Shown one piece after another: positions 304 through 45,300 of a stretch of 64,000 nt of DNA. The translations under genes were made by a program, and so were the position numbers. Each line of letters opens with the position of its first letter. The first letter of the stretch is position 1. The notes beneath the pieces are model-generated. The model was not told where the DNA came from, did not search any database, and saw only the letters and a list, made by a program, of their open reading frames with translations. This stretch comes from Escherichia phage vB_Eco_F22. Location of the stretch: sequence record OP870143.1; one strand, given 5' to 3'.

Positions 304-513
304 GTTACACGTTGCTCCGCAACCTATGGACATGTCGTCCTATCATCAACTATTGGAGCTATCATCATGACTACTACCGCTACTGTACGTATGACCGCAG
401 GAACTTTACTTGGTACTGTTAACTCTGCTGCTACTACTGTTGCAGATACATTTGGTACTGCTACTAAAGCAGTAGGTATGCTTAACTCATATGTATCTAC
501 TATGGCAGAGAAA
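304..513. repeat. Right arm of the 210-bp inverted repeat; contains a hairpin motif and the first 49 codons of ORF 367..690
   Basis: Exact reverse complement of 1..210. Confidence 0.85.
311..323 (+). promoter_or_regulatory. Hairpin motif GTTGC-TCC-GCAAC upstream of ORF 367..690; candidate virion-RNAP-type hairpin promoter
   Basis: 5-bp GC-rich stem with 3-nt TCC loop, followed by ctatGGAc; same family as motifs at 929, 1242 and 5106. Confidence 0.4.
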
Positions 514-690
514 CAAGCCATTCGTACTAAATTAGAAATGCATACATTCGTAAACAAATTAGCTGAAGAAACAGCTATGAACGAGACTATGCGTAAGAAA
601 AGTATTGAAGAATTCTGCAAAGATTCAGAGAACGCTCGTATCTATAACGCAGAATATTCAAAAGTAATCGACATCCTGACTAAAGACTAA
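367..690 (+). CDS. Hypothetical early protein (107 aa); 5' 147 nt duplicated in inverted orientation at 1..147
   Basis: ORF with GGAG 9 nt upstream of ATG; followed by a terminator hairpin. Confidence 0.5.
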   Translation: MTTTATVRMTAGTLLGTVNSAATTVADTFGTATKAVGMLNSYVSTMAEKQAIRTKLEMHTFVNKLAEETAMNETMRKKSIEEFCKDSENARIYNAEYSKVIDILTKD

Positions 691-696
691 ATCAAT

Positions 697-724
697 AGGA
701 GGCTCTTCGGAGTCTCCTTTTATA
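697..724 (+). terminator. Intrinsic terminator
   Basis: Hairpin AGGAGGCTC-TTCG-GAGTCTCCT followed by TTTTAT. Confidence 0.6.
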
Positions 725-777
725 AACATTAGATAGATAGTCTATTTTGCATAAAAAGTTAAAAGAGAATCCTACTA

Positions 778-924
778 TGAGCAAACTAGAAAACGCATTT
801 ATCCTGACTGTTTGTGTACTTGCAATTGTTACTTTGGTTTCCATTCACATTGGGAAACCTCTGGTAAATACTGACTATGGCAATGGTCAAAAAGTAAAAT
901 CCATCTTGCTAATGGATAAGTAAA
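778..924 (+). CDS. Possible small hydrophobic protein (about 48 aa), not in the ORF track
   Basis: ATG..TAA read by eye in the 690-976 gap; predicted single hydrophobic helix; weak RBS. Confidence 0.2.
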
Positions 925-928
925 AACC

Positions 929-941
929 GCTGTTCCACAGC
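929..941 (+). promoter_or_regulatory. Hairpin motif GCTGT-TCC-ACAGC upstream of ORF 976..1191
   Basis: 5-bp stem, TCC loop, followed by ttacGGATa; member of the repeated motif family. Confidence 0.4.
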
Positions 942-975
942 TTACGGATACATTTCAACCAATTAGGAGACATCC

Positions 976-1191
976 ATGCACACAGAAAATATCCGTATAA
1001 TTGAGAATTGCTTTAGTAACAAACCAGTAGACCTCAGCAACGCAAGAAGGTCTACTGATAAAGAGTATGGAGAGTTTCTATCCTTACTCGATGAGTATCG
1101 TATGCAAGGGCATGTTGAATTACATGCCTATCTGCATAACTCAGGCTACTTCATGGATAAACTGGAATCTGAAACAGGCTGTCCATTCTAA
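976..1191 (+). CDS. Hypothetical early protein (71 aa)
   Basis: ORF with AGGAG RBS; downstream of hairpin motif at 929. Confidence 0.5.
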   Translation: MHTENIRIIENCFSNKPVDLSNARRSTDKEYGEFLSLLDEYRMQGHVELHAYLHNSGYFMDKLESETGCPF

Positions 1192-1241
1192 GTAAACAAT
1201 TCCCTCTTAAGAGGGAATCAGCACAGAGTGCTTAAAACCAG

Positions 1242-1256
1242 GGCTGCTCCGCAGCC
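1242..1256 (+). promoter_or_regulatory. Hairpin motif GGCTGC-TCC-GCAGCC upstream of ORF 1269..1751
   Basis: 6-bp stem, TCC loop, followed by tttGGATgattt then ATG at 1269. Confidence 0.45.
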
Positions 1257-1268
1257 TTTGGATGATTT

Positions 1269-1751
1269 ATGCATCCACTAATCATTGAAATCTTAAGTCT
1301 TTTCTTGGGTTTAGTCACCGACGGACAAACCCATAAATCAAACAATCATTTATCTGGAGAGTACAAAATGTCTATTCAAAAATTCACTTTCGGTCAATCT
1401 AACCCTGCTGCTACCACTGAAACTAAAACTGCTAAGCCTAAAGCTCAGTTCTGGTTGAACATTGGTTATATTGCTAATGAAGGCTCTGAAGATGAGAAGT
1501 TCATCTCTCTGCCTACTGGTATTCCACTGGATACTCAGGAACCACTGCCTACTAATAGCAGCAATGCTGACTTCCGTGCTATGCGTTGTGCACAGAACGA
1601 CTTGCTGGAACAGTTAATCGAATATGCTCAGAACCTGGAACCAGGTGAAGAAGGTATCATTAACCTGCAAGTTCAACTACGTCGTGTGAAAGCAGAGGCT
1701 GCTGACATCCCAGCAGACGAGAATAAATATGCTCGTAAACTGACTTTCTAA
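1269..1751 (+). CDS. Hypothetical early protein (160 aa; alternative start at 1368 with GGAG RBS gives 127 aa)
   Basis: ORF immediately downstream of hairpin motif at 1242; terminator hairpin at 1761..1790. Confidence 0.5.
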
Positions 1752-1760
1752 TCAACAACT

Positions 1761-1790
1761 GGACTCCCTTCGGGGAGTCTTTTATTTTTA
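1761..1790 (+). terminator. Intrinsic terminator
   Basis: Hairpin GGACTCCC-TTCG-GGGAGTC followed by TTTTATTTTT. Confidence 0.7.
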
Positions 1791-1894
1791 ACTAGACGAT
1801 AAGCTATTTCTACTTTTTGAGTATCTTTAGACGAAGGGTACTGAAACAGTAACCAGATAGATATAGATTTATATTAGATGAAGGAGTAACCACT

Positions 1895-2191
1895 ATGCGT
1901 ACATTATGTAACCGTTATAACTCACAAAAGTTGATTGATACGTTGCAACCTTGGGGTAGTAAGATGTCACTGAATGCTCGCTGGCAGGTAAGTGTAAAAG
2001 ATGAAAACGGTCACTGCTATGACCACTTCTTTGTAACTAAACCTACTCGTAAACAAATCCGTAAACTTCACAATGTGCAAAAACATTACCTATCACAAAA
2101 ATGCTATGAGTGTGGTAAGAGAATAGAACTAGGTAAAGAATTTACTTTTGATGATCTCAACTATGCTCACACTGACTGCCTGAAAGGATAA
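1895..2191 (+). CDS. Hypothetical Cys/His-rich protein (98 aa), possible zinc-binding
   Basis: ORF with GGAG RBS; HCYDH...CYECGKR...HTDC pattern. Confidence 0.5.
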   Translation: MRTLCNRYNSQKLIDTLQPWGSKMSLNARWQVSVKDENGHCYDHFFVTKPTRKQIRKLHNVQKHYLSQKCYECGKRIELGKEFTFDDLNYAHTDCLKG

Positions 2192-2195
2192 GACT

Positions 2196-2414
2196 ATGCT
2201 GGACTTCATTGCGTTTGTAATACTCTGCTCTGTACTGTATCGCCTGCGTGGTTACATCCTCAATGGAGCCAAGTGGGTAAGAACTAAGTTGGTACTTATC
2301 TGTAAGTTACCCGTTGTATTCGTTAAGTGTCTGTTTGCTTCCATAGTAGCTAAAGAAGTTCGTAAGCAACTCTGGGCTAAAGAAGCAGAAGAGTTTGCAA
2401 AGAGGAACCAGTGA
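2196..2414 (+). CDS. Hypothetical small protein (72 aa) with hydrophobic N-terminus
   Basis: ORF closely following the previous gene. Confidence 0.4.
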   Translation: MLDFIAFVILCSVLYRLRGYILNGAKWVRTKLVLICKLPVVFVKCLFASIVAKEVRKQLWAKEAEEFAKRNQ

Positions 2415-2584
2415 TATTCACTAACATTGAGGATGCCATTGAAGAATGTATCTTCCGTAGATATCACACTGGAGTACAGAAGCGACACTATGGTGTTGTA
2501 CAGCTCAATGGTTATCAAATGGCTGTAAGAATTGTACGTAACAATAAACCTTTTAACTTTATGTGGAGTACTAAACATGCGTAA
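2411..2584 (+). CDS. Possible small protein (about 57 aa, GTG start overlapping the upstream stop)
   Basis: Read by eye; not in the ORF track; weak support. Confidence 0.2.
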   Translation: MIFTNIEDAIEECIFRRYHTGVQKRHYGVVQLNGYQMAVRIVRNNKPFNFMWSTKHA

Positions 2585-2706
2585 GTCATTAATCATGGGA
2601 ACCAAAGCTGACGTACAGAAGATGAAAGAGCGTCTGGCTGCTAAGCAACAGACATCTGAACCAGTACGTAAGATTGTTACCTTCAACCATCCGTGCATAA
2701 AATAGT
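2578..2706 (+). CDS. Possible small protein (about 42 aa)
   Basis: ATG with GGAG about 10 nt upstream; ends just before terminator hairpin at 2708. Confidence 0.25.
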
Positions 2707-2707
2707 A

Positions 2708-2745
2708 AGGAGTCCTCCAATAGGAGGCTCCTATTTTTTATTTTT
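2708..2745 (+). terminator. Intrinsic terminator
   Basis: Imperfect hairpin AAGGAGTCCTCC/AGGAGGCTCCT followed by T-rich run. Confidence 0.55.
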
Positions 2746-2782
2746 GAATAGTTAGTTATGTATTTAAATAGGAGAAAGAGCC

Positions 2783-3097
2783 TTGAATGAAATAGTATGT
2801 ATACTTCCTCACTTAGCTAAAGTAGCTGACAGGAATATACGGGTACATTTACCCTTCCCATTAAGTAATCCATTCACTCGTAATGAAAGAACCACAGTAG
2901 AAGATATAGAGGTAGCTTATGAGGCTTATCTTCGTAATCGTCTTATTAGTGGTGACAAATTAATTACAGCAGAGATGGAAAGGATTGCATCCTTTGTCAC
3001 AGATAGTACTAAGAAACCTGTTGGTTTAATTGGTACTGAATCTGATGTTAACGTTATTCGTAAAATATTAATGGAGGCTTTAGGTGAACAACCTTAG
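2783..3097 (+). CDS. Hypothetical protein (104 aa; TTG start in track)
   Basis: ORF with AGGAG upstream. Confidence 0.45.
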   Translation: MNEIVCILPHLAKVADRNIRVHLPFPLSNPFTRNERTTVEDIEVAYEAYLRNRLISGDKLITAEMERIASFVTDSTKKPVGLIGTESDVNVIRKILMEALGEQP

Positions 3098-3317
3098 TGA
3101 TGTAATAGTAGGTAATGAAATATTCGTTAACCGAAAAGGTTATGCACGAATTAAGCTAAAGAGTACTAACAGAACTATTGTTCGTAAGGTGTACTCTAAA
3201 CCTTTTAGTAATTTCTCTATTGATGAGGTGCGTATTAATAACAAAATGTACCTCATAGATAGTAAAGTATCTGTATGCCATACAGACGGTAAAACCTCAC
3301 TTGAATATGCTTATTAA
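3084..3317 (+). CDS. Hypothetical protein (77 aa; GTG start)
   Basis: ORF overlapping the upstream gene end; same transcriptional orientation. Confidence 0.4.
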   Translation: MNNLSDVIVGNEIFVNRKGYARIKLKSTNRTIVRKVYSKPFSNFSIDEVRINNKMYLIDSKVSVCHTDGKTSLEYAY

Positions 3318-3329
3318 GGAATAAACAAA

Positions 3330-4483: not shown

Positions 4484-4843
4484 ATGAAAGAGATATTCGT
4501 ATTCACTACTAACACATTAGGTCAGCATACCAATGCTGCTGCCAAGTTAGCCTATAAGAAGCATGGTGCTCGTTGGGGTATGGCCTATGGTCATTATGGT
4601 AATAGCTTTGCCATTCCAGTAAGAGATGGCAATGGTAACCGTATCAAAGAGGGTGCTATTTATGGCTTCATTGAAGGTTTTATTGCCTATGCGTCTACTA
4701 ATCCGCAGTGGGATTTCAAAGTCATGAGTAATGACTATCTGGACCCATACCAATTCATTAATGTAACTGGCAATGTACTGTTACCGGAAGCATGGCGTAA
4801 ACACTTAGGTGATGCTTACAACTACTGGGGAACATTCTCATGA
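4484..4843 (+). CDS. Hypothetical protein (119 aa)
   Basis: ORF; no motif recognised. Confidence 0.5.
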   Translation: MKEIFVFTTNTLGQHTNAAAKLAYKKHGARWGMAYGHYGNSFAIPVRDGNGNRIKEGAIYGFIEGFIAYASTNPQWDFKVMSNDYLDPYQFINVTGNVLLPEAWRKHLGDAYNYWGTFS

Positions 4844-5100
4844 CATATGAAGAACTATGGGCTGCTCAGGTCAGAGCCAGAGCACTCACACGGCATGACA
4901 TCTATTGTGCATTGCAGAACGAATTAAAAGGTCGTACTAAGCTAGGTCACATATCAGGTTTAGTTAAAATACCTATGCGTAGTCTAGTATGGCCTTATCA
5001 GAAAAAAAGTAATGAATTTAACGGTAATGGTTTATATGTACGTATTAACTACCTTGGTCAAGAGAACAGTATTCGTATTGCCTTTTGGACTAAGCGGTAG
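4840..5100 (+). CDS. Hypothetical protein (86 aa)
   Basis: ORF with ATGA overlap to the upstream gene. Confidence 0.45.
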   Translation: MTYEELWAAQVRARALTRHDIYCALQNELKGRTKLGHISGLVKIPMRSLVWPYQKKSNEFNGNGLYVRINYLGQENSIRIAFWTKR

Positions 5101-5105
5101 GCAAT

Positions 5106-5120
5106 AGCTGCTCCGCAGCT
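5106..5120 (+). promoter_or_regulatory. Hairpin motif AGCTGC-TCC-GCAGCT upstream of ORF 5134..5364
   Basis: 6-bp stem, TCC loop, followed by tgaGGATgtaatc then ATG at 5134; near-identical core to the 1242 motif. Confidence 0.45.
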
Positions 5121-5133
5121 TGAGGATGTAATC

Positions 5134-5364
5134 ATGGCAGTATCCATTCAGGAAATCATTGTTAAAAGGCACAAGAGAAAATGGGAAAGCTATTACAAGC
5201 TAAAAGAGGTAATTAATGCTGCTTACCTTAGTGAAGAAGGTTATGCCTGGGTTGAACTAAATAGTGTATGGCCTTGGAGACATAACATCTATACAGACAG
5301 TTTAATCATATTCTACAGCTATGCGAATGAGCATAGTGGTAGGCGTCTAATTGCAAGAATGTAA
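5134..5364 (+). CDS. Hypothetical protein (76 aa)
   Basis: ORF directly downstream of hairpin motif at 5106. Confidence 0.5.
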   Translation: MAVSIQEIIVKRHKRKWESYYKLKEVINAAYLSEEGYAWVELNSVWPWRHNIYTDSLIIFYSYANEHSGRRLIARM

Positions 5365-5386
5365 TTAACTAATTGGAGAATATGCG

Positions 5387-6205
5387 ATGTACTCATCAAT
5401 AGAACATCAGAAGCAGCTTGAAGTCCTATTCAATAAAAATCAATTACTGCCTCGCATGAGGAAGGAATTCGAGGACTCCAAAGAAATTGACTTTAAGGCA
5501 TTCGCTGCCTATTTAGAAATTGATTATAAGCTGCTCATTGATGCAATGGTGCAGATTGCCCTACATAAACGTGCTGACATCCAGACTATGATTGGCTCTC
5601 TCATGAGTCACTCAGATGATGCTCAGTACATCGCTGACTGTCTATATAAGATGGCAGAGAATGACTGCTTCAACTATGACCCTACCATCGACAAATTCGG
5701 TGTTATCTATGAGATTAGTGAAGATGTTCAGATGGAACTGGAAGCATTCCAGTATCCATTACCTATCGTAAGTGCTCCTAAGCCTGTTCTGTGTAACCGT
5801 GATACAGGTTACTACGAAAGCAGAGGCAGCATCATCCTCAAGAAGAATCATCATGAAATGGACGTCTGCCTTGACCACATCAACCGTATGAACAATCAAC
5901 GTCTCTGTATTAACTGGGACGTTGCCAACTATGTAAAAGACTCTCGTCCTAACATGGATAAACCCAAAGAGGGGGAAACCCGTCAGGACTATGAGAAACG
6001 TGTTAAAGCCTTTGAGAAGTACAGTCGTACTGCTAAGGAAGTAATGGAGTTAGTAACTCAAGAAGGCAATAACTTCTCACTAGCACATAAGTACGATAAG
6101 AGGGGCAGAACCTATGCCTGTGGATACCATATCAATTTTCAAGGGACTTCATATAACAAGGCAGTGATTGAATTTGCTGATAAGGAGCTGGTAAACGATG
6201 ATTAA
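5387..6205 (+). CDS. Phage RNA polymerase II small subunit (N4 gp15-like)
   Basis: 272 aa, immediately upstream of the catalytic subunit; size and position match the N4 RNAPII heterodimer. Confidence 0.5.
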   Translation: MYSSIEHQKQLEVLFNKNQLLPRMRKEFEDSKEIDFKAFAAYLEIDYKLLIDAMVQIALHKRADIQTMIGSLMSHSDDAQYIADCLYKMAENDCFNYDPTIDKFGVIYEISEDVQMELEAFQYPLPIVSAPKPVLCNRDTGYYESRGSIILKKNHHEMDVCLDHINRMNNQRLCINWDVANYVKDSRPNMDKPKEGETRQDYEKRVKAFEKYSRTAKEVMELVTQEGNNFSLAHKYDKRGRTYACGYHINFQGTSYNKAVIEFADKELVNDD

Positions 6206-6346
6206 TAAACGTGCAGTAGAAGACTTCTATGCTCATAGAGAGTTGGTACTGAAACGCATCAATGAAGCAATGAAACGTGAGGCTGAAGCTAAAGCTAAGC
6301 ATAACCGTAAATAAATCCAAATGCGAGCCAAGAGGACTAATCTCAA

Positions 6347-6589
6347 ATGAGTAAGCTATTAAAACTGTGGTTAATTAGCCAAAGTGAAAACCGTGGGCAT
6401 GACTCCTTTGATTCTGCTGTTGTAGCAGCCTACACAGAGGAAGAAGCTAAACAAATTAATCCAGACGGAGAATGGAAACTATACACCGCCTGGTGTTCTT
6501 CACCAGATAAAGTACATGTTGAGTACCTGGGTATTGCCACCGAAGGCGTGGAACCAGGAATAGTATTGTCATCATTTAATGCTGGTTAA
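6347..6589 (+). CDS. Hypothetical protein (80 aa)
   Basis: ORF between the two RNAP subunit genes. Confidence 0.4.
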   Translation: MSKLLKLWLISQSENRGHDSFDSAVVAAYTEEEAKQINPDGEWKLYTAWCSSPDKVHVEYLGIATEGVEPGIVLSSFNAG

Positions 6590-6643
6590 TCATCCAATAA
6601 GCAGGCTCTCCATAGTGGGGAGCCAAGAAGCGAGGAATATACA

Positions 6644-7861
6644 ATGCAACTGTTAACTGCCCGTGAATACCTGAAAGTAGATGTCGCTAACAACTATGGC
6701 TTAGATAAAAAGACATGGGATGAACGTATTAGCTGGTTCGATGAGAACGAAGCTAATCTGCTCAATCTGGTAGATGAAGCTGAAGAATCTGCACTGTTCT
6801 ATGCTGGTGTAAACGCATGGAAAGATATGAAAGCTGGTAAGCCTATTGGTTATGCCGTAGCTCTGGATGCTACATCATCTGGCTTACAGTTACTGGCTTG
6901 CCTGACTGGTGACCGTTCTGCTGCTGAACTGTGTAACGTAGTTAACTACATGGGCAAGAATGGTAAGCCATTACGTCGTGATGCTTATACAGTTATCTAT
7001 CATAAGATGCTGGACATCCTTGGTGAAGCATCTCGTATTAAACGTAGTGACACCAAGCAGGCAGTTATGACTGCATTCTATGGTTCAGAAGCTAAACCTA
7101 AAGAAGTATTCGGTGAAGGTATCCGTCTCAAGACTTTTGAGAATGTAATGGAAACTGTTGCTAGTGGACCTTGGGCATTGAACAAGTTCTTACTGCAATG
7201 TGGTAACCCAGACGCTAACCGTTATGTATGGGTATTGCCTGACAACTTCCATGCTGTCATTAAAGTTATGGTTCCTGAAGTACAGACTGTTAACTTCTTA
7301 GGTAAGCCATTCGACATCACTCGTATGGTCCAAGGTACTGAAGAGAAGACCCGTATGCTCTCTGCTAACATCACCCACTCTATTGATGGGATGGTAGTAC
7401 GTGAGATGCTGCGTCGTTGTAACTTCAACATGAACCAGGTGAACTATATTAAGTCCCTCTGTGAGGGAACCAGTGAATACATGGTTGGCTCTGATGATAA
7501 CTATGAAATGGTTAACACACTGTGGTCTAACTATGAGAAGTCGGGATTCCTGTCTACCCGTATCTTTGATTATCTGGACTCTGAAACAATTGCATTGGTT
7601 GATACAGATGTAATCATGGCTATGCTCAATACCATGCCTAAGAAACCATTCCCTGTAATGACCGTACACGACTGCTTCCGTTGTCATCCTAACTACGGTA
7701 ATGACCTGCGTCGTCAGTACAATCAGATTCTGTCTGACATTGCTAAGAGTGACCTACTGGGCTTCATCCTGTCTCAGGTACTGGGACAAGAGTTCTCTGC
7801 TGGTAAGCTGGATGACAGCCTTTGGCAGGACATCCTTGAAACAGATTATGCATTAAGTTAA
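6644..7861 (+). CDS. Phage RNA polymerase II catalytic subunit (T7-like single-subunit RNAP palm; N4 gp16-like)
   Basis: ALDATSSGLQ (motif A), RSDTKQAVMTAFYGSEAKPKEVFG (motif B, close to T7 RSVTKRSVMTLAYGSKEFG), TVHDCF (motif C); terminator at 7869. Confidence 0.8.
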   Translation: MQLLTAREYLKVDVANNYGLDKKTWDERISWFDENEANLLNLVDEAEESALFYAGVNAWKDMKAGKPIGYAVALDATSSGLQLLACLTGDRSAAELCNVVNYMGKNGKPLRRDAYTVIYHKMLDILGEASRIKRSDTKQAVMTAFYGSEAKPKEVFGEGIRLKTFENVMETVASGPWALNKFLLQCGNPDANRYVWVLPDNFHAVIKVMVPEVQTVNFLGKPFDITRMVQGTEEKTRMLSANITHSIDGMVVREMLRRCNFNMNQVNYIKSLCEGTSEYMVGSDDNYEMVNTLWSNYEKSGFLSTRIFDYLDSETIALVDTDVIMAMLNTMPKKPFPVMTVHDCFRCHPNYGNDLRRQYNQILSDIAKSDLLGFILSQVLGQEFSAGKLDDSLWQDILETDYALS

Positions 7862-7868
7862 TAAACTG

Positions 7869-7903
7869 GCCTCATACCTTCGGGTATGGGGCTTTTATTT
7901 TTT
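7869..7903 (+). terminator. Intrinsic terminator after the RNAPII catalytic subunit gene
   Basis: Hairpin GCCTCATACC-TTCG-GGTATGGGGC followed by TTTTATTTTTT. Confidence 0.75.
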
Positions 7904-7905
7904 GC

Positions 7906-8103
7906 TTGGAGGTAGTCAACATGCCAGACATCTATGATGTTATTACTAAAACCGTACTGATAGTTTTATCTGCTATTGTGATACTCACTATAGTTAACGC
8001 CCACAAATCCAAGTTTGCTTATTGCTACTATGGAGCATACTCTGCCGGATGTTTTGTATTAGCCGGTTGGATAGCTTACTGGATTTACCACATCAACAAC
8101 TAG
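7906..8103 (+). CDS. Small membrane protein (65 aa, two hydrophobic helices)
   Basis: ORF between two terminators. Confidence 0.4.
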   Translation: MEVVNMPDIYDVITKTVLIVLSAIVILTIVNAHKSKFAYCYYGAYSAGCFVLAGWIAYWIYHINN

Positions 8104-8130
8104 CCACCCTCAAGGGTGGCTTTCTTTTTT
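8103..8130 (+). terminator. Intrinsic terminator
   Basis: Hairpin GCCACCC-TCAA-GGGTGGC followed by TTTCTTTTTT. Confidence 0.7.
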
Positions 8131-8177
8131 ATCAGCCTTCATAATGATTAGGCATATTTACTCAAGAGGATACATAC

Positions 8178-9011
8178 ATGCCAACCCTAAAGATTGCGTT
8201 TAATAAAACTACCAACGTTGCTACCGTGCTTGATTCAGGTGGCAGTGTTCCAGGTGGTTCCGTGGAAGTAGGTACTTTTGAACATCCAGATGCCACTTAC
8301 CCTGATAGCTTAGTTATCTATCACGGTGTTCGTGACCTGTTGTATAAACGTTCTGCTAAAAACCCTGCTGAAGAAGGCTTCTGGCCTGACAACATCGTGG
8401 ATATGCAATCGGTCACTATCGACATGCAAGCTACTCCACGACTGACTGTTGCTACCAAACTGCCTCGTGTAGTCTCTGCCATCGAAGGAGTAGATGTTAA
8501 CTGGCATATTGATGTAGCAGGTGGTAAAGCACCATTTACTTATAAGTGGCAATTCAAAGCTGATACTGCTGGTGCAGTATTCACTGATATTGATTCTGGT
8601 GATAACGCATCTGCTATCACTGCAACATTGACCCTTAGTAACGTAACAGCTGCTTCTGCCGGTACTTATAAAGTGATTGTTACTGATGCTAATGGAACCA
8701 CGGTAGAAGATACCTCGTTGCTGGCTGTAGGTTACTACGAAGCAAGTTCACTGGTAGCTACTCCTACTTCACTGGCTCTGTCTGTTGCTGAAGATCTCGC
8801 CGCTGGCAAGACTGTAACCATTGCTGCTATGCCTGTTGGTTCATCTGCTGGTACTTTGTCTATCAAGACTGCTCCAGATTCTGCCCGTGCTACAGCTACC
8901 ATTGCTGGTAACGTACTGACAGTTAAACCTGTGGCTGCTGGTGATGCTACTTCTGTTGTAGTTACCAACGGTACTGTCGATGTAACCATCGCTGTTACTG
9001 TTGCAGAGTAA
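8178..9011 (+). CDS. Ig-like domain protein, possible capsid decoration protein (N4 gp17-like)
   Basis: TYKWQF...TLTLSNVTAASAGTYKVIVTDANGTT resembles Ig-like/Big domain strands; position after the RNAPII genes matches N4 gp17. Confidence 0.45.
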   Translation: MPTLKIAFNKTTNVATVLDSGGSVPGGSVEVGTFEHPDATYPDSLVIYHGVRDLLYKRSAKNPAEEGFWPDNIVDMQSVTIDMQATPRLTVATKLPRVVSAIEGVDVNWHIDVAGGKAPFTYKWQFKADTAGAVFTDIDSGDNASAITATLTLSNVTAASAGTYKVIVTDANGTTVEDTSLLAVGYYEASSLVATPTSLALSVAEDLAAGKTVTIAAMPVGSSAGTLSIKTAPDSARATATIAGNVLTVKPVAAGDATSVVVTNGTVDVTIAVTVAE

Positions 9012-30980: not shown

Positions 30981-31020
30981 GCGTTTGCCTGGTTGTTAAT
31001 CACTTATTAGGAAAAATATT

Positions 31021-31824
31021 ATGTCACTGTTCGGTAACTTGAAAGAAAAAACCAAAAACGTTGAAGCTGCAAAAGACACTCTTGGTGGTGGTGGCTTCGG
31101 TGCTAAAGAATCTGATATCTACACTGGTACTGTAAAAGTAGCTTACGTAGGTAAAGCTGATTCTGGTGCAGACTGGATGCAGTTAATCATCGAAAACCTG
31201 AAAGGTTCTGACGGCAATGATGCTGGTGAGTTCCGTGCTCAGGTGTACTTTACTTCCGGTAATGCTAAAGGCAATAAGCCGACTTACGAGAAGAATGGTA
31301 AAGAATACTTCCTGCCTGGCTACACTGTCATTAATGACATGATGCTGATGGCTACTGGTTGTGAACTGCCAGATGCAGACTTCGAAGAGAAGATTGTTAA
31401 AGTCTATGACTTCGACCTGAAAGCTGAAACCAATAAGTCTGTCATGGTTCCAGTTGACCTGGTTGGGCAGACTGTTACCTTCGCTCTGGAAAAGGTTCTG
31501 GAAGCTAAGCAGGTTAAAGGTGACAACGGTTACGTTGACTCCGGAGAAACTCGTGAAGTAAACGAGATTCAGAAAGTATTTCACCCGGAATTGCTGGTCA
31601 CAGTCGTCGAGGCTCAGGAAGCAGAGAAGGCTGAGAAAGAACTGACCCCAGAACTGGCTGTATTCTATGCAGCATGGCTGGAAAAGAACAAAGGTAAAAC
31701 CCGTGATAAGACCAAGGGTTCTGCTGGTGGTAATGGTAAAGGTGGCCTGCCTCCTAAACCAGGTGCAGGTGCTGGCACAGGTACTACTCCTGCTGGTGGT
31801 AAATCTCTGTTCGGTAAGCGTTAA
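31021..31824 (+). CDS. Single-stranded DNA-binding protein candidate (N4 gp45-like) with Gly-rich C-terminal tail
   Basis: 267 aa; position between replication ATPase and resolvase as in N4; no OB-fold motif verified. Confidence 0.4.
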   Translation: MSLFGNLKEKTKNVEAAKDTLGGGGFGAKESDIYTGTVKVAYVGKADSGADWMQLIIENLKGSDGNDAGEFRAQVYFTSGNAKGNKPTYEKNGKEYFLPGYTVINDMMLMATGCELPDADFEEKIVKVYDFDLKAETNKSVMVPVDLVGQTVTFALEKVLEAKQVKGDNGYVDSGETREVNEIQKVFHPELLVTVVEAQEAEKAEKELTPELAVFYAAWLEKNKGKTRDKTKGSAGGNGKGGLPPKPGAGAGTGTTPAGGKSLFGKR

Positions 31825-34461: not shown

Positions 34462-34535
34462 GTCCACTTAGCTTAGACTGGGAAAGCAACCGACTAATAA
34501 TCGGAAGGTCACTGGTTCAAATCCAGTAGTGGACA
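34462..34535 (+). tRNA. tRNA gene (74 nt); anticodon loop CTAATAA, anticodon tentatively AAT; CCA not encoded
   Basis: Manual cloverleaf: acceptor GTCCACT/AGTGGAC (7 bp), D-stem GCTT/AAGC with GG in loop, 4-bp anticodon stem CCGA/TCGG, T-arm ACTGG-TTCAAAT-CCAGT. Confidence 0.5.
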
Positions 34536-34769
34536 CCTATTCAGCAGTAACATAGTCCTGATTGCATAGCACTCTAAAGACAACACTGGTAAGACAGTCC
34601 AGTGGCTGCTAATGTATTGTTATTCCCCTCGACGGGAATTTCGCTAGTGAAGGTAACACTTAAAAATCCAAAGCTACGTCTTACTACTATCGGGCTATCA
34701 ACCCACGGTCGCTTAACCCTATAGCGGTAGTAGTTTGACGGCCTGCCTCGTTGACTGCGTTAAAGTCAC

Positions 34770-36301: not shown

Positions 36302-39300
36302 TTAGTTTACCAGGTTCATCCAAGGGTTCAGGTTGTGAGCACGTAGACCTTGCCCAAAGCCCCATGAGTAATCCAGCCCACCCTTAGCAGCAATGCTAAA
36401 GATGTTGTCCTGAATAGGCAGACCAACATTACCAAACATGGTAGGAGTTGGAGCCAGCATTGCCATTGCTGCATGCACCGGGTTATTACGAATCATGGAC
36501 ACTGCAACCTTAGCTGAACGAATCTTAAAGTTGTAGAACCACATCAAACCAACACTTTCCATATACCCACGGAAGCGACCTGGTAAACGGTCATAGTTAA
36601 CAAACTCTTCAGTTACACGTCCCAGTGCTTCTTCACGAGTCTTACCTTTACGCTGAGTCAATTCATCATAGATGATTGCTTTAGCGATAAAGTCAGAGTA
36701 CTCAACTGTCTTTTGGATACCCTGGAACAGAGCAGTATCCTTGGTGATAAGTGCATAACGTCCAGCAGTACGTACAGACTTAGGTAACTTATCTGCCAGC
36801 TTTTCCATATATTCGTGAAGTTTGCCTTCAGTAATCAGAATGTCATCACGACCGATACCAGCATCTGCAATTGAAGAGAACTCACCAGCTTCCAACAGAG
36901 GCCAGATGCTCATACGCTTATGGCTATCAGTAATGGACTGAATCTCAGCCTTAAGTTTACGAATCTGGTTCGGGTTAGTAGCTGCACGTAATTCTGCTTC
37001 TGCATCTACCTGACGCAGACGAGATTTCAGGTACTGGTTAATCTCAGCAGTTTTCTGTGGAATGCTTTTAGCAATGTTCTTAACCGGTACACCACGGGCA
37101 ACCATCTGGTAAAGGTTAGCCAAGAAGTTAACAGCAGGTACGACTACTGACTTAACTACAATCAGAGTCTTGGCTTCTTTAACTAAGTTTTGAACCAGGT
37201 TCTCACCACCCATTGTGTACTTATAAGCACGGTTGCCAAATACACCCAGCATAGCTTTCTTGAAGGTATCCAATGTTTCCGGGGACCAACGAGAATTACC
37301 AGACCAGGCATCACCTACAGAAGCTGCACGATAACCAAGTGCATCATTCAGCATGTCACGACGCACCCACAGTTCACCCTCACCAAACAGACTTTCTGCT
37401 TTCTGACGTGTTTCACTGTTCATTAGCTTAAGAGCATCAGCAGTTACTGGGTCCAGTTTAGAACCAAGAAGGTTAACGTACTGGGATTTATTAGAGGCAG
37501 ACATCTTAATGTCGTTCTCATACATGCTATGCAGGTTCTCAATCAACATATTGTTGAAACGCTGAGCCTTAGCTTCTTCCACCTGACGACCACGCCATAC
37601 ACCAATTGCACGGGCAAGGTGATTCTCGCCTTCAATGTGCTTCAGCATGTTAGGGTCAATGGATTGCTCATAGGCAACCACATTACCTTTGTCATCATAT
37701 ACAGGCAGAAGTGGTTCATTACCACGTTCACCACGAGCCAGTGCTTTAGTGATACGGTCTACGGAAGGCTTGTCAGTAATACGACCAGCTACCATCGAAC
37801 CCATCGTAAAGCCCGTACCGATGTCTACACCACCAGCAGTATTACGAACGTTTTGTAGGATACCCTGTGAGAAAGGAGCCTGTGCCTGTACCGGTGCGAA
37901 GTAGTAGCTGCGTGCTGGACCACGGTTAGCAGAGCTACCTTGATAAGTACCCAGACGTACATAAGATTTCTCAATCAAATCTCCAAACTGGCTATCTTCA
38001 GCAACAATCAGATTAACACCCTGTTTAGTCTCACTAGGGATATGCCCTTTGTACTGGTTCAAGGTTGCACGCATATCAGACTTGGCTTTAGCCATTTCAT
38101 CTTTACGCTGACCAACCAGGTAAGAAGTAGCAAAGTCCATTCCATCAACTTCTGTCTGAGCCAGAGAAGATAACATCTCACGGTCGGACTTGTTCATTGC
38201 TTCCAGTGCATACAGGGTAATCAGTTTATCCAGTTGAGCTACATCTACAGTAGAACGAGCAGCCTGACGTTCACCAAGCATACGAGAGATTGCAGTAGCA
38301 TTACGCAGCAGGTTATTACCGACTGTACCGTTAATCATGAACTGAGCCAGTTGCTTAGATTTACGACTAATAAGAGGCCAGTTACGACCAGCTTGTTTCT
38401 GCAAATCTGCTTCCAGCTTATTCACTTCACGGTCAACAATCTTCTGGTCAGATAGTAGGTCACGGATTTCAGCCAGAGACATAGTGTCACGCAGAACAGC
38501 TAAGTCAGTTTTACCCATGCCAGTGTGCATTGCTTTCCACTCATCGTTAGTCAGCTTACGGCTGAACTTAGATGCGATAGTGGTAGGCAGGTGTTCACGG
38601 AATTGCTGACGGTCTGCTTGTACCTGTGCACGAACTGCTTTAATCAAATCGTATACAGAAGCATTACTCTTAGTACGACCAGTTAAGTCATTAACCAGGT
38701 CATGGAAGGGTTGCCATACCTTACCCTGGTTCATTGCAGCCATAACACCTTCAGCTACAATTGCACCATTCTTCTCAGTAGCAATAGCAGCCACCAATTG
38801 TGCAGCATGGGCAGCACCTTTAACCAATGGATTCTTAGTATTAGCTGCAACTTCGCGAGCACTTTCTAAAGCACGAGTAGACAGTGCATCAATAGAATCC
38901 ACCAGATACTGGTTAGCACGATCAATAGCATTACCACTAGGAGTAGCAACGGAATCATAGAATGACTGTGCATTGAGGCTAGTCTGCATGATTGTCTGAG
39001 CCAGTGCATCCATACCTTCCTGTACGTTGGTAGCTTTAGTGTCACCTGCTACACGGGCATTCAAGCTAGACATTGCAGCAGTACCAATGTTAGTCAGCAT
39101 TGCATCAATGGTATTACCGGATTTCTTATCTGCTTTCATAACAGGAATGTTAGCCAGTACGTTACGTACCTCTTCACTTACCATTGCCAGACCAACAAAG
39201 GTAGGCAGTAAGGAAGAACGACCCTGTGCATCAAACTCGATATTGTTAGCACCCATGATGGTATCGAACTTCTGCTGTGCATAGTAACGGTCAGCAGGGT

Positions 39301-42300
39301 TGGTACTATCCGGGTCAGCCATGAATGCTTCAACGGTCAGATTCTTAGTAACGTGTGCATAGTATTCCTGTGCACGAGATAGAGCAGCCGGACTAATAGC
39401 AGCCTCAGTAGCCAAAGCAGCAACGATATTAGTGAACAGGCGTTGTTCCTGCATATTCATAGTGAAACCATGAGCCTGAACATCACGGGTTACTTTAGTA
39501 GCATTCACTACTGCATCAGAGAACTTACCTTTACGAATTACTTGTTGCACTGGTTCTGAACCAATGTAGTTAGTAATCAGCTTATCAAAGGTCTGCCCCA
39601 ATTCTTCCAGACGGGTATTGTCGCCATACGCCTTGTTATGGAACAAGGTAGTGTCCTTGGATACAGCAGCCGTAGGAGCCTGCCCACGCATAACTACGGA
39701 AGAGTTAAACAGTAAGCCAGAGAACATATCATCTGCATTAGCAGGAGCTTTCTTACGACCGAATACCAGACGCTTGATTGCTTCATACACAGACTGAACC
39801 ATAGTCTTCAGTGCAGTAGTCTTCTTCTGCTTACTAATTAGTTCACGGTTGGTTAAGCCCCAAGCCATGTATTCGTTCAGTGCAGCAGCTTTAGCCATTG
39901 CCGGTTCAATGAAGCCATTAGACAAGTGACCGTTAATGGTATTGAGTGCATCAGCATATGCTTCACGTACTGCCGGGGTTTCATCCTTAACATCCAGAGT
40001 ACGGAACTGGTTCATCAGGTCTTCAATATTCTGAACTGCTTCATTAGGAGTACCCTCATAATGAGCCAGTACAGATTCAAAAGTAGAAGCATGTACCAAT
40101 TCATGAACCAGAGTCTCTAAGGAAGGGGTAACTAAGTAGATGGTCTTATCATCAAAGTTAGTCCAGCCATATGCATTACCAGCTTCGGCAGCTTCAATAT
40201 CTTCCGGTGCTGGGCGAGTAATGTTCTTCTCAATAGCATAAGCATCCAGCTGAGCAGGAGTACCGTAAACAACCTTGTAGTCTTTAGCAGCAAGGGATTT
40301 CTGTACTTCTTTCAATACCGCTTGCTGTTCAGGAGACATCTCTTTAGCCAGCTTAGTGATAGCAGTATTAGACAGCAGACGTACACCAGACTTCAGTACA
40401 CGACCAACCTGTTCCATTGCTGGTACTTCTTTAACAGGTGTTTCTTCAGCAGGTACTTCTTTCACTGGTTCTGCTTTAGCAGCACGTACTGCATCACGGC
40501 GCTTATTTAATTCGGCATCAAACAGTTCGTTTAGCTTAGCTACTTGCTGGTCTACAGTCAGACCTTCCAGAGAGATTTTACCGTTGTTCACATAAGGAGC
40601 ACCTACAGCAGCCATCTGGTCAACAGTGGTCTGTACCTGGTTCATTACTTTGTGGCGAATATCTACACCTAAAGCAATGTTACGCAGATTACGTTCAATG
40701 AGGTTAACACCGGATTTCTCAATCATATCAATCTTATACTGCCTGTCTCCCTCAACACGACTGATATGGGAAAGCTGTTCAAAATCTAAAGCGGAACGAG
40801 CAATGTCATCAATTGTCTTATCTGACAACTTATTAAAGTCTACGTTCTTCATGAACTTAGAGAAGGAGTCATACACGTTCTTAATAGGATTGCCCTGCCA
40901 AGAAGTATAAACAGCCTCATTAGCTTTACGACTTGCATCAGTGATGTCATTGATACCAATGTTCATACCATCAAAGATTTTCAGGGTATTCTTCGGAGCA
41001 CCTTTCATAGTAGAAAGGGTCTGCATCATCATGCCATCACCAGTACCAATGGTCATAAATGGAATACCTGCAACACCTGCTTGTGAAGGAGCATAGATGC
41101 TCATTGGCACACGCATACGGTCGTCTAAGTTGGTAGCCAGTACTTGGTTAGCAACATCAGTATTCTCACTGCCAGCAATGTAAAAAGTCTGTGAACCAGT
41201 CTCAATCATTGGAGCCAGTGGAGACAGGGATTTCTGAATTTCATTCAGCTCTTCCTGTGTTAAGAAATCGCCCTTCTTCCAGGTTGGGTCTTTTTCTTTT
41301 TCTGCCAGTTTAGCCTGTACTGCTTGTTGGAACATATCCTGCAATACTAAAGACTGAATTTGAGTAGCCTTCTGCAAGTTCTCAGTGGAGTGCATCAGAC
41401 CTTCACCAACGGTGAACCGGATACTTTGTCTCATTGGTTCAACGAAGAAGTGCAACATGTTCTCTTGTAGGTTCTTAAGAGCATCACCAGATACAGTAAA
41501 CTCCTGGGGATCTAACTCACCAGTCAGAGCACCATCTACTTCCTTAATAAATAACTTACCTTTACGCTTAGCTGGAATCTTACCAGTCAGTGCTTCCATA
41601 GAAGTAAGGAAGGTATCCAGCATAGCCTGAGCATCTGCCTCAGACGCAGCCTCCTTACCAAACAATGCCATAGCTGGGGAAATGCTAGGGTCAGTAGCAC
41701 GTGCTTGTAGAACGTCACTGAGGCGTTCGTAGATGGCGTCAGTAATTGCACTAACCATCTTGCCAGCAATACCACGAGCACCAGAACCATAGATGGTAAT
41801 GGTCAGGGGGTTTTTAGCGATGCCACGTTTCAGGTCCAGAGTACCGTCTTCATTCAGGTTAAAGTCTTTAATGAACAGGTCCATTAGCTTCTGGAGATGA
41901 TCCATCTGGCTCATAACAGGAACGTTGTTACGGTAAGCACTACGTAATTCATTTAGATAGAATTGCAAACTATTGGTAGATGCTTCATACAGGTCAACAT
42001 TATCGTCGATAGAGCAATGTTCGTTCATCGTTTTACCAGCACGACCAAAGAACAAACCACCCTTGGCAGTATTCTTAATCCAATTTGGAGTGAACTTACC
42101 TCCAGTCATTAATACCATTGCGTTGATTGGGCCGTTGGTTACACCATCGGCTTCAACGTACAGAGGAGTATTAAAATTAGCACGGTTATCACTGTTCAGG
42201 TAACGGGCATATTCCATCAGAGCCATGAGAGCCACGAAGGATTTGTTATCACCCAAAGAGGTCTTCAGGATATCTACTGCATCTGTCGGTAAGTGCCCAG

Positions 42301-45300
42301 ACTTATCAAACTCAACCATCATATCAACAGCAGGTTTCAATTTGCCTTCCAGAGCTTTAGTCAACTCTTCAGACATAGCTTCACGGGACATTTTATGTAC
42401 CTTGATGCCTAATGCCTGAGCCAGTCCTAACTGGAAGTCAGAGAACGCTTGGCTATTTTCATTACTCAGGTCAATAGTAGAGAAGGTTGGCAGAATTGCT
42501 TCACGAACCAGCTTACTGGATTGTGGGTTGTTCTTACCAAGCATCTGCATACGACCTACTCGGGTCATGTTATAGCCATAGTGAATGGGGGTATCCAAAC
42601 CATTCTCTTGTTCTTTTAGATGATTAATTAAACCGAACAGAGAATCATATGCCATAGATACTGATAAGTTCTTACCTTCCAGTGATTTAGCATTATTTTT
42701 ATTCAGCAAATCAGGATTAAGAGTACCAGCACCCATTAGTTCCAGAATGCTGTCTCGACCCAATGCTTCATAGAAGTTAACCATCGGCATGTGTACACGG
42801 AACTCAGTAGCCTGTTCAGCTTTCAGTGCAGCTTTCTGTTCGGGGGTATTCTTAACAGCAGGATTACGTAACTGAGTTTGGGCCACGGAAGGAATGTCGT
42901 CACCAAAGTACATTTTCTCTTCCGGATTTACCAACACAGCTTCTTCAATTGCTGTAGGGAAATTATTAATAGGGTCTTTATCAGCCAACTTATTAATAGT
43001 GTACAGACCAATAGTCTTATTAGAGTCCGGGTCAATCTCAGACACATCCAGCATAGTCTCTGTAACTGCACCCATCTCAATGAGGGAAGACAGAATCTCT
43101 GTAGCCATTGCCACTGGAATGCCTTTTGTATAACCCAGTGGTGCATTAGGGTTACGATTCAAACCCCAATAAGATTCAATCTTCTGAGCCAGTGAGCTAG
43201 TAGCTTCGACCAGGGTCTGGGCATTCTCAAATTCAGCCAGAATACTTTCTGGTAACAAGGATGCTTCTACTCCAGTAATGGCAGCTACGTCTTTTATGTC
43301 TTTAATGGCAGCATTCTGTGCAGCAGTCAGTCGCCATTGCAGACCAGCAAGCACGGCAGTCTCTAACAACTGGTCATTGAACTTAAAGGTATCACCATCT
43401 TTTTCAACGATATTCAGCAGTTTGCCACCTACCCAACGGTTAGCTTCAGTACCTTCTGCAAAACGTTTACCAACGTTCTTATTAGCAAGGAACTTAGCCA
43501 GTCGTTCAGACAGAGTAGTCTTCAGTGTTTCCCCAAAGTCCATCAAATCTTGGTAACGTTCTAACACATCACCCGTGAGAGCGTTATTTTCTTTTTGAGT
43601 GAATGCTTCAAAGCGAGCAGCAGAAGACAGTGCTTGCTTAATATCAGCTAAAGGAGATTCAGAACCAATGGTACGGGACTTGGGTTCTTCTGGCAGGGTA
43701 AATGCTTTCAGGAACTGGTTCGGTGTCTTTTCATTGTTATAGACAGGGAACACTGTTTCCATCTCAGAAAGAGGTTTGCCACCTACTGTATAATCTGCTT
43801 TTAGCTGAGCCAGCGATACTTCATCTTTCTCCACGTTGTTAGTGTTACGGCCAGAGGTATCTACACCAACCAGAATCTGTGCATTATTGGCTTCAACGAA
43901 AGATTGAACAGTATTGAATTGTTCAGCGGTCAGCTTTTGATTATCAAACAGTTGTAGGGACACAAACGGTTGTTCACTGCCTTTATAGAAAGTAGAGCGA
44001 ATAGAACCAGTATCCAAAGACATATCACGATAGCCATCATGCCCAAATACGTCAGACAGGCTGATATGGTCGCCATTAGAACCAACCACAGTACCATCAG
44101 CAAACAACCACGGACTCTCTCTACGGTCACCACTCTTATTAAGAGTTTCCTGTGAAATGGTATTTTCTTTCACATAAGCATCTCTTTCAGATTCAGTAGG
44201 TTGCTCAATGGTATCCTCATTAGTGAGGGTAGCATCTACTGTTTCAGGCTTAGTAGTAGAAACTTCTTCTGTTTTTGGGCTAGTCTCCTTAGTAGGAGCA
44301 GTCTTATTTTCTACCACTGGTTTAGCTTTAGGCTGTACAGTAGTAGTGTCCTCTTGCACTGGTGCAGGAGTTTCATCAACCTGATTCACTGGTTCATTAG
44401 TCTGTTGAGACTGAGTGGCATCAAGACCACCTTGACGGAACTCTTTAACTACCTGGGCAGCAGGCTTGTTCAGACGTGAATCCAACGAGGTAACTTTCAC
44501 ATGAGAAACATTAAGCTCCGGGTAAGCCGTAGCAAGTGCATTAGCAATATCAGCTACGGTTTTGGCCTCCAGTCCTACTTGCTGTGCAAACTTAACAGAC
44601 TTGGTATCGTAAGGATTAACACCGAGGCCAGTACGACTACGTACCCATTCACGGGAAGGCGAGAGAGCCTGATAATGAACAGACTTATTCTTATCCGCAT
44701 TCCCCGAAATCAGATGCTCATTCAACGCTCCGACCTTATTCTGCATGTGCTGGGCGAACTTCATAAAGTCGCTCAGATAAGCGGAGGCCAAATCGAAGTT
44801 ACCAGAGTTATACGCAGAACGAATGCGTTTCGCATGTTGCAACGCAGAGTACTGTCCTTCATTAGAACGAGACTCGTCGGTTTTAATCTGTTTACTAACA
44901 ATGTCTTGAGGACGTAAGCCTAGTTCTTCTGCTTTAGCGTCGAACTCTCGTGCACCCTGTAACAAGGCAGCAGCAGATTGCAGGGCAGCACGTTGACGAT
45001 TCCCCAGTGTAATCTTACCTTCGCTTGCGTGCTTCAGAACCATGTTCACTGAATCTGCATCCAGTACTTCTGGAGATACATCAGCAGCCATAGCAATGTT
45101 GTTTGCTTGGGCTTGATTAGCTTCTTCAGTAGCTTTCAGCTTACCTGCTTCAGCCTGTTCCTGAATCATAGAATGGATGGCACGGAATGCACGAAGTACT
45201 TTAGGGGTATTCTGTACGTTAGCCATCAGACCAGAGAACTGGTCTACGATTGCAGCAGCAGGGGAACCCTGTTCCAGATTAGCCAGAGCACCCGGGTCAC

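Follow-up and report, generated by a model that had tools for sequence, protein, structure and literature searches.

This study concerns positions 5387-7861 of a 64,000-nucleotide stretch of DNA from Escherichia phage vB_Eco_F22 (record OP870143.1; the whole stretch is hereafter called the window), where two open reading frames (ORFs) almost certainly encode the parts of a divided RNA polymerase (RNAP). An ORF of 272 aa (5387-6205) is followed by ORFs of 80 aa (6347-6589) and 405 aa (6644-7861), all on the plus strand, and these positions and lengths agree exactly with those given in the initial annotation of this DNA. The segment is 100% identical to the corresponding part of Escherichia phage E20 (OP745616.1; Schitoviridae, Enquatrovirinae, Gamaleyavirus), and about 50 further Gamaleyavirus records match it at 90-95%. 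The E20 record labels the 272-aa and 405-aa ORFs both as "RNA polymerase" and also annotates an 80-aa and a 38-aa ORF in the gap between them. As the Gamaleyavirus ortholog of the coliphage N4 enzyme RNAPII, the feature is a known one and already carries its label in the public record.

The gene at 5387-6205 (+), which terminates in TAA, encodes the small subunit, the ortholog of N4 gp15 (RNAP1). When all PDB sequences were searched, the 272-aa protein matched chain A of 6DT7 ("RNAP1") with an E-value of 1.2e-117 over residues 3-269 (residues 2-268 of the chain), and the PHROG family phrog_2166, 'N4-like RNA polymerase', was matched at an E-value of 5e-116. Identity to N4 gp15 is 65%. The entry 6DT7 is the heterodimer of coliphage N4 RNAPII (Molodtsov and Murakami 2018, as cited in PMC7145618). 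Pairwise BLAST aligned residues 126-272 of the small subunit with residues 270-455 of T7 RNAP, a region that includes the DxxGR motif (D237 and R241; DKRGRTY against DWRGRVY in T7), and weak matches to mitochondrial RNAP were obtained as well. By these alignments, the 272-aa protein shows a clear relationship to the part of RNAP immediately upstream of the palm.

The gene at 6644-7861 (+) encodes the large, catalytic subunit, the ortholog of N4 gp16 (RNAP2). In the same PDB search, residues 1-405 matched residues 1-404 of 6DT7 chain B ("RNAP2") with an E-value of 5.3e-194; phrog_2051 ('RNA polymerase') was matched at an E-value of 3e-177, and Pfam RNA_pol (PF00940) at 53.1 bits over residues 8-148, the gathering cut-off being 22. 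Identity to N4 gp16 is 69%. The motif strings that the initial annotation quoted from this protein are all present, ALDATSSGLQ at residue 73, RSDTKQAVMTAFYGSEAKPKEVFG at residue 134, and TVHDCF at residue 340. The key residues are D75 in motif A; R134, K138, Y146, and G147 in motif B; H245; and H342 and D343 in motif C. Motif B had been described as nearly identical to that of T7. Its functional residues are indeed intact, but the wording was overstated, with just 10 of the 15 positions of the core identical (RSDTKQAVMTAFYGS here, RSVTKRSVMTLAYGS in T7). For motifs A and C, the identity to T7 is 5/10 and 3/6, respectively. The motif and profile matches to RNAP are far beyond chance.

The relationship of the two proteins to T7 RNAP was delineated by pairwise BLAST and by aligning the joined subunit sequences with the T7 and N4 enzymes in MAFFT. 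By BLAST, the large subunit aligns with T7 residues 459-656, which cover motifs A and B, and with residues 810-883, from motif C to the C-terminus. In the MAFFT alignment, the junction between the subunits corresponds to T7 residue 455, and the two halves are contiguous, without overlap. T7 residues D421 and R425 are kept as D237 and R241 of the small subunit, and D537, R627, K631, Y639, G640, H784, H811, and D812 are kept as D75, R134, K138, Y146, G147, H245, H342, and D343 of the large subunit. Both catalytic aspartates and motifs A, B, and C are carried by the large subunit, and DxxGR by the small one. Overall, 157 of 591 aligned positions (about 27%) are identical to T7 RNAP. With its catalytic domains split across two polypeptides, the enzyme is a member of the T7-like superfamily and not a single-subunit RNAP.

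N4 RNAPII has been recognised as a heterodimeric T7-family RNAP since 2002, and its gene pair belongs to the core genes of the Schitoviridae. We searched phage records by tblastn with the concatenated subunits and counted a record when a single place on one strand covered at least 80% of both. In 385 such records, the subunit genes lay close to each other on the same strand; the hosts include Escherichia, Klebsiella, Pseudomonas, Vibrio, Achromobacter, Erwinia, Rhizobium, and others. Across the family, the stretch covered by the two genes, from small-subunit start to large-subunit end, spans ~1,960 to ~3,060 bp. In the window, both subunits are full length and 94-99% identical to their counterparts in phages G7C and PhAPEC5, which indicates purifying selection.

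Collectively, a middle-gene RNAP orthologous to N4 RNAPII (gp15 plus gp16) is almost certainly encoded by the 272-aa and 405-aa ORFs, one subunit by each, with the limit that the ORFs of 76, 38, and 80 aa in the same operon (see below) have no N4 counterpart. The initial annotation had proposed a split T7-like RNAP matching the heterodimeric N4 enzyme, and this proposal holds up throughout: the proteins map to contiguous, non-overlapping parts of T7 RNAP and run the full length of chains A and B of 6DT7, the 272-aa protein is related to the N-terminal regions of RNAP, and the homologs keep the pairing. The assignment draws on homology, motif conservation, the split point, the gene context, and matches to promoter and terminator consensus, and nothing was found that counts against it.

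The gap between the subunit genes measures 438 bp. The 80-aa ORF that the initial annotation had placed there is present, but it is cargo that varies between phages rather than a constant component of the polymerase, and a further ORF of 38 aa (6198-6314) had gone unmentioned. The same slot is differently occupied among related phages. In N4, it is 47 bp long and contains no ORF; in G7C and Bas96, it holds a 193-aa HNH endonuclease (G7C ORF15.1); in HK2, a different 204-aa endonuclease; and in PhAPEC5, a 53-aa ORF unrelated to the 80-aa ORF. The 80-aa ORF occupies the slot in about 12 Gamaleyavirus records, among them IME11 and about 10 others in which it is 79-85% identical, and E20 has both the 38-aa and the 80-aa ORF. 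The inter-subunit gap is thus a variable, recurrent cargo slot.

The 38-aa ORF (E20_19; 6198-6314, +) is rich in Lys and Arg and is annotated in the E20 record; its ATG overlaps the small-subunit stop by 8 nt (ATGATTAA). No family match was obtained for it. Of 50,697 phage records, only E20 matched bases 1-141 of the gap in full; phage CU10EC gave a short partial match. It is doubtful that the 38-aa ORF is a gene.

The 80-aa ORF (E20_20; 6347-6589, +) encodes a conserved small protein of phrog_5444 (E-value, 1.8e-22). Its family comprises 181 homologs, mostly of 78-100 aa, without a Pfam domain or a name, and 14 alignment columns are invariant, the C-terminal SFNAG among them. The structure model of the protein is confident (pLDDT 86); no informative fold match to this model was obtained, and no match was found in Pfam, NCBIfam, or PADLOC. 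Such a real and conserved protein could be envisaged, perhaps together with the 38-aa ORF, as a functional third component or regulator of RNAPII that is placed for synthesis in step with the subunits. Consistent with this, three lineages of the Enquatrovirinae have the ORF in this slot, directly before the large-subunit gene, namely the Gamaleyavirus records mentioned above, two Kaypoctavirus Klebsiella phages (39% identity), and the metagenomic N4-like contig L015 (68% identity), and the RNAP subunits of these lineages are only ~64-70% identical to each other; moreover, no separate promoter was found in the inter-subunit gap. However, the ORF is missing from N4, G7C, Bas96, HK2, and PhAPEC5, all of which have intact RNAPII genes. 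The family also occurs without a split-RNAP context in jumbo Erwinia phages, in phages of Rhizobium and Acinetobacter, and in a Vibrio myovirus, and contigs L013 and L016 carry it with no RNAP gene nearby. In addition, the Kaypoctavirus copy, at 39% identity to that of E20, is more distant than copies from outside the Schitoviridae (~50%), which suggests independent capture, and no fold or family match points to a role of the protein in transcription. We therefore consider a part of the 80-aa protein in RNAPII function very unlikely. The 80-aa ORF is probably a passenger gene in a slot that is permissive or hot for insertion; like the 38-aa ORF, it is most likely transcribed along with the polymerase genes as a passenger.

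A broader conjecture is that mobile cargo may have been landing in the slot over a long time, HNH homing endonucleases in some lineages and the 80-aa SFNAG-terminal family in at least three, and that either the 80-aa protein acts as a modulator of RNAPII or of early host takeover, or an insertion of this kind brought about the ancestral fission of a single-chain T7-like RNAP at residue 455. We regard this conjecture as unlikely.

The endonucleases in the slot also bear on another explanation, according to which the ORFs would be one RNAP gene broken by a mobile insertion (an intron, an intein, or a homing-endonuclease cassette), that is, either a spliced single chain or a decaying pseudogene. 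Homing-type HNH endonucleases do occupy the slot in close relatives, g16 is reported to be interrupted by insertions with homing endonucleases in G7C-like phages (bioRxiv 10.1101/542787), and in one Vibrio phage the large-subunit gene lies in two pieces around an HNH gene. Nevertheless, this explanation is close to negligible, given that the two subunit ORFs start and stop independently and have separate ribosome-binding sites, that the gap holds stops and independent ORFs with no in-frame intein joining the halves, that both proteins are full length and so similar to those of G7C and PhAPEC5, and that in N4, where just 47 bp separate the genes, the split is the same and the enzyme has been both purified and crystallised in heterodimeric form (PMC4496689; PDB 6DT7). 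An intron or ribozyme in the gap was likewise rejected, since an Rfam search of 4900-8200, group I and group II introns included, gave no match at an E-value of 1 or below.

The Vibrio phage concerned is 1.224.A (NC_048124.1; Mukerjeevirus). At 304-3326, the small- and large-subunit genes stand in reverse order and the large subunit is divided in two, the sequence of genes being the N-terminal part of the large subunit, the HNH endonuclease, the C-terminal part of the large subunit, and the small-subunit homolog. In alignment, the two pieces overlap at motif B (E20 residues 127-143), which points to insertion of an intron or a homing endonuclease into the motif that is most conserved. In Burkholderia phage HN02 and Vibrio phage pVco-7, the large-subunit matches are spread over ~2 kb.

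Immediately upstream of the large-subunit gene, a hairpin with a 9-bp stem and a 3-nt loop (GGCTCTCCA-TAG-TGGGGAGCC) is located at 6604-6624 (+), 20 nt before the start codon. As RNA, it folds with -16.6 kcal/mol (z = -3.2), and it is not followed by a T-run. The hairpin is ~90% conserved in Gamaleyaviruses irrespective of the cargo, and, of the gap, only the last 55-60 bp before the large-subunit start, comprising the hairpin and the ribosome-binding site, are common to most of the genus. Bas96, in which the HNH gene abuts the large-subunit gene, is without this hairpin, and the N4 equivalent is a weak hairpin of 4 bp.

The early promoters of N4 are 3-nt-loop hairpins beside a CATCC element, and the hairpin at 6604-6624 was considered as an internal promoter of the virion RNAP (vRNAP). 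This possibility was rejected on several grounds. N4 P2 is on the template (-) strand, whereas the CATCCAA that precedes the hairpin, at 6591, is on the plus strand, and the motif occurs at chance frequency (11 found, 9.9 expected). The template loop C-T-A fails the requirements for a purine at -11 and a G at -10, and the gap contains no GCGRAGC heptamer. The hairpin may instead be an element of RNA stability, processing, or translation.

A candidate for the promoter that serves both subunit genes lies further upstream. A P3-type early promoter of the virion RNAP is predicted on the minus (template) strand at 5106-5124, with the hairpin AGCTGC-GGA-GCAGCT at 5106-5120 and a predicted +1 C at 5124. 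Its GCGGAGC heptamer (5110-5116, minus strand) aligns with N4 P1, N4 P2, and the N4 site at 4551-4557. On its template strand, N4 has three hairpins with GC-rich heptamers (93, 562, and 4551), the last of them directly upstream of gp15, and their equivalents in the window are at 314, 1246, and 5110 (GCGGAGC, GGA loop, +1C). Three N4-type vRNAP hairpin promoters are thus predicted on the template strand of the window, at 300-335, 1235-1262, and 5106-5124, upstream of the gp1, gp2, and RNAPII genes, respectively. The vRNAP requires contacts at -8G, -10G, -11G, and +1C of its promoters (PMC4496689); the six hairpin sites, three from N4 and three from the window, all align, and these contacts are present. 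The third hairpin would drive rightward transcription of the RNAPII operon.

Between this promoter and the small-subunit gene lies an ORF of 76 aa (E20_17; 5134-5364, +), which is annotated in the E20 record and gave no match to a PHROG or any other family. No ORF is found at this position in N4, G7C, or Bas96; HK2 has one of similar size. At the other end, directly after the large-subunit stop, an intrinsic terminator-like hairpin of 11 pairs followed by TTTATTTTTT is located at 7868-7903 (+). The order after the third promoter is the 76-aa ORF, the small subunit, the 38-aa ORF, the 80-aa ORF, the hairpin at 6604-6624, the large subunit, and the terminator. Given the hairpin promoter upstream and the terminator downstream, the RNAPII locus looks like an early operon. 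A scan of 4800-8300 for sigma-70 promoters yielded 6 matches against 9.5 in shuffled sequence, providing no evidence of host-type promoters, and no vRNAP-type heptamer was found in the inter-subunit gap; the whole set would therefore probably be one early transcript.

In N4, gp1 and gp2 act together with RNAPII: the enzyme is recruited to AT-rich middle promoters by gp2, a single-stranded DNA (ssDNA)-binding protein, and middle transcription also requires gp1 as a cofactor (PMC4496689). Homologs of both were detected in the window by tblastn with N4 proteins. The gp1 homolog (367-690, +; phrog_5020) shows 66% identity over 104 of 108 aa, and the gp2 homolog (1269-1751, +; phrog_4099) shows 68% identity over all 161 aa. 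The latter (E20_04) carries the label 'integrase' in the E20 record, which is likely a misannotation, since its identity to N4 gp2 extends over the full length. As regards its start, PHROG 4099 and the E20 record use Met34 (window position 1368), and the N4 annotation is the longer form.

Further N4 transcription and replication proteins have homologs in the window. A homolog of the virion RNA polymerase, N4 gp50, is found at approximately 36305-47131 (-), where tblastn matched residues 1-3500 in two pieces with 59% and 69% identity. Between the two pieces, ~415 nt (43732-44147, -) remain unaligned, at N4 residues ~1004-1025, which suggests an insertion or a highly divergent stretch between the N-terminal domain and the polymerase domain. 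An N4SSB homolog lies at about 31018-31821 (58% identity by tblastn), and a homolog of the N4 DNA polymerase is also present.

By analogy with N4, the following scheme may be proposed for the RNAPII ortholog. The injected virion RNAP would transcribe the operon early from the DNA-hairpin promoter at ~5106-5124, and the two polypeptides would associate as a heterodimer. Together, the two proteins make up a minimal T7-family RNAP of 677 aa, without most of the T7 N-terminal promoter-binding domain and divided at T7 residue 455. What remains of the N-terminal region comes from the small subunit, as do the thumb and the DxxGR motif; the large subunit contributes the palm and the fingers with motifs A, B, and C. 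The ssDNA-binding gp2 homolog would recruit the enzyme to AT-rich middle promoters with the help of the gp1 homolog. Heterodimer formation, the timing of expression, and the dependence on cofactors are in each case predicted from N4 biochemistry.

Two further features of the window were noted outside the operon. Positions 1-224 are a 99% inverted copy of 290-513, so that the 5' end of the gp1 homolog recurs in part and reversed at 147-1 (-). Among the other phage matches listed, the alignment begins at ~217-230 of the window, and the E20 record begins at 293. The inverted copy is probably a fold-back assembly artefact at the left terminus of the genome. A tRNA-Ile gene with the unusual anticodon AAT (34462-34537) was the sole Rfam or ARAGORN match in the window.

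The significance of the locus is small beyond its correct annotation. The by-products are the anatomy of the operon, with its hairpin promoter, three extra small ORFs, conserved leader hairpin, and terminator; a recurrent cargo slot holding an uncharacterised, conserved 80-aa family in several lineages; and a gp2 homolog labelled 'integrase'.

Compared with T7 RNAP, the enzyme has the same catalytic architecture, and its subunits are colinear with T7 from residue ~160 to 883. T7 RNAP is one polypeptide, whereas here there are two ORFs 438 bp apart, each with its own start and stop. Most of the N-terminal domain and several segments of the fingers and the specificity region of T7 RNAP are absent, and ~70 aa are inserted before motif C. 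Unlike T7 RNAP, the N4 enzyme needs cofactors and an ssDNA template, and the heterodimer alone binds only ssDNA, without sequence specificity (PMC4496689).

The N4-related Pseudomonas phage LUZ7 also has a heterodimeric RNAPII, whose two subunits bind each other and which is recruited by an ssDNA-binding cofactor, Drc, that it binds (PMC7145618). However, LUZ7 lacks gp1 and gp2 homologs and relies on the unrelated Drc, and its subunits are ~31-36% identical to those of N4. Since the window has clear homologs of both gp1 and gp2, the N4 scheme, and not that of LUZ7, would apply to it.

N4 RNAPII itself, whose solved structures are PDB entries 6DT7, 6DT8, and 6DTA, differs from the present system around the genes. 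The N4 inter-subunit gap of 47 bp contrasts with the 438 bp here, with two small ORFs and a strong hairpin, and N4 has gp15 directly after the promoter, where the window has the extra 76-aa ORF. N4 gp15 and gp16 each align with a part of T7 RNAP, without overlap, and together they have been purified as a heterodimeric enzyme, which transcribes the middle genes (PMC4496689). The N4 subunits are 269 and 404 aa long, against 272 and 405 aa here, with the same split point relative to T7 and the same catalytic and DxxGR residues. The gene order and the flanks are also the same, with a gp14 homolog upstream and a homolog of the Hoc-like gp17 downstream, and in both phages a vRNAP hairpin promoter, predicted in the window, lies upstream of the pair.

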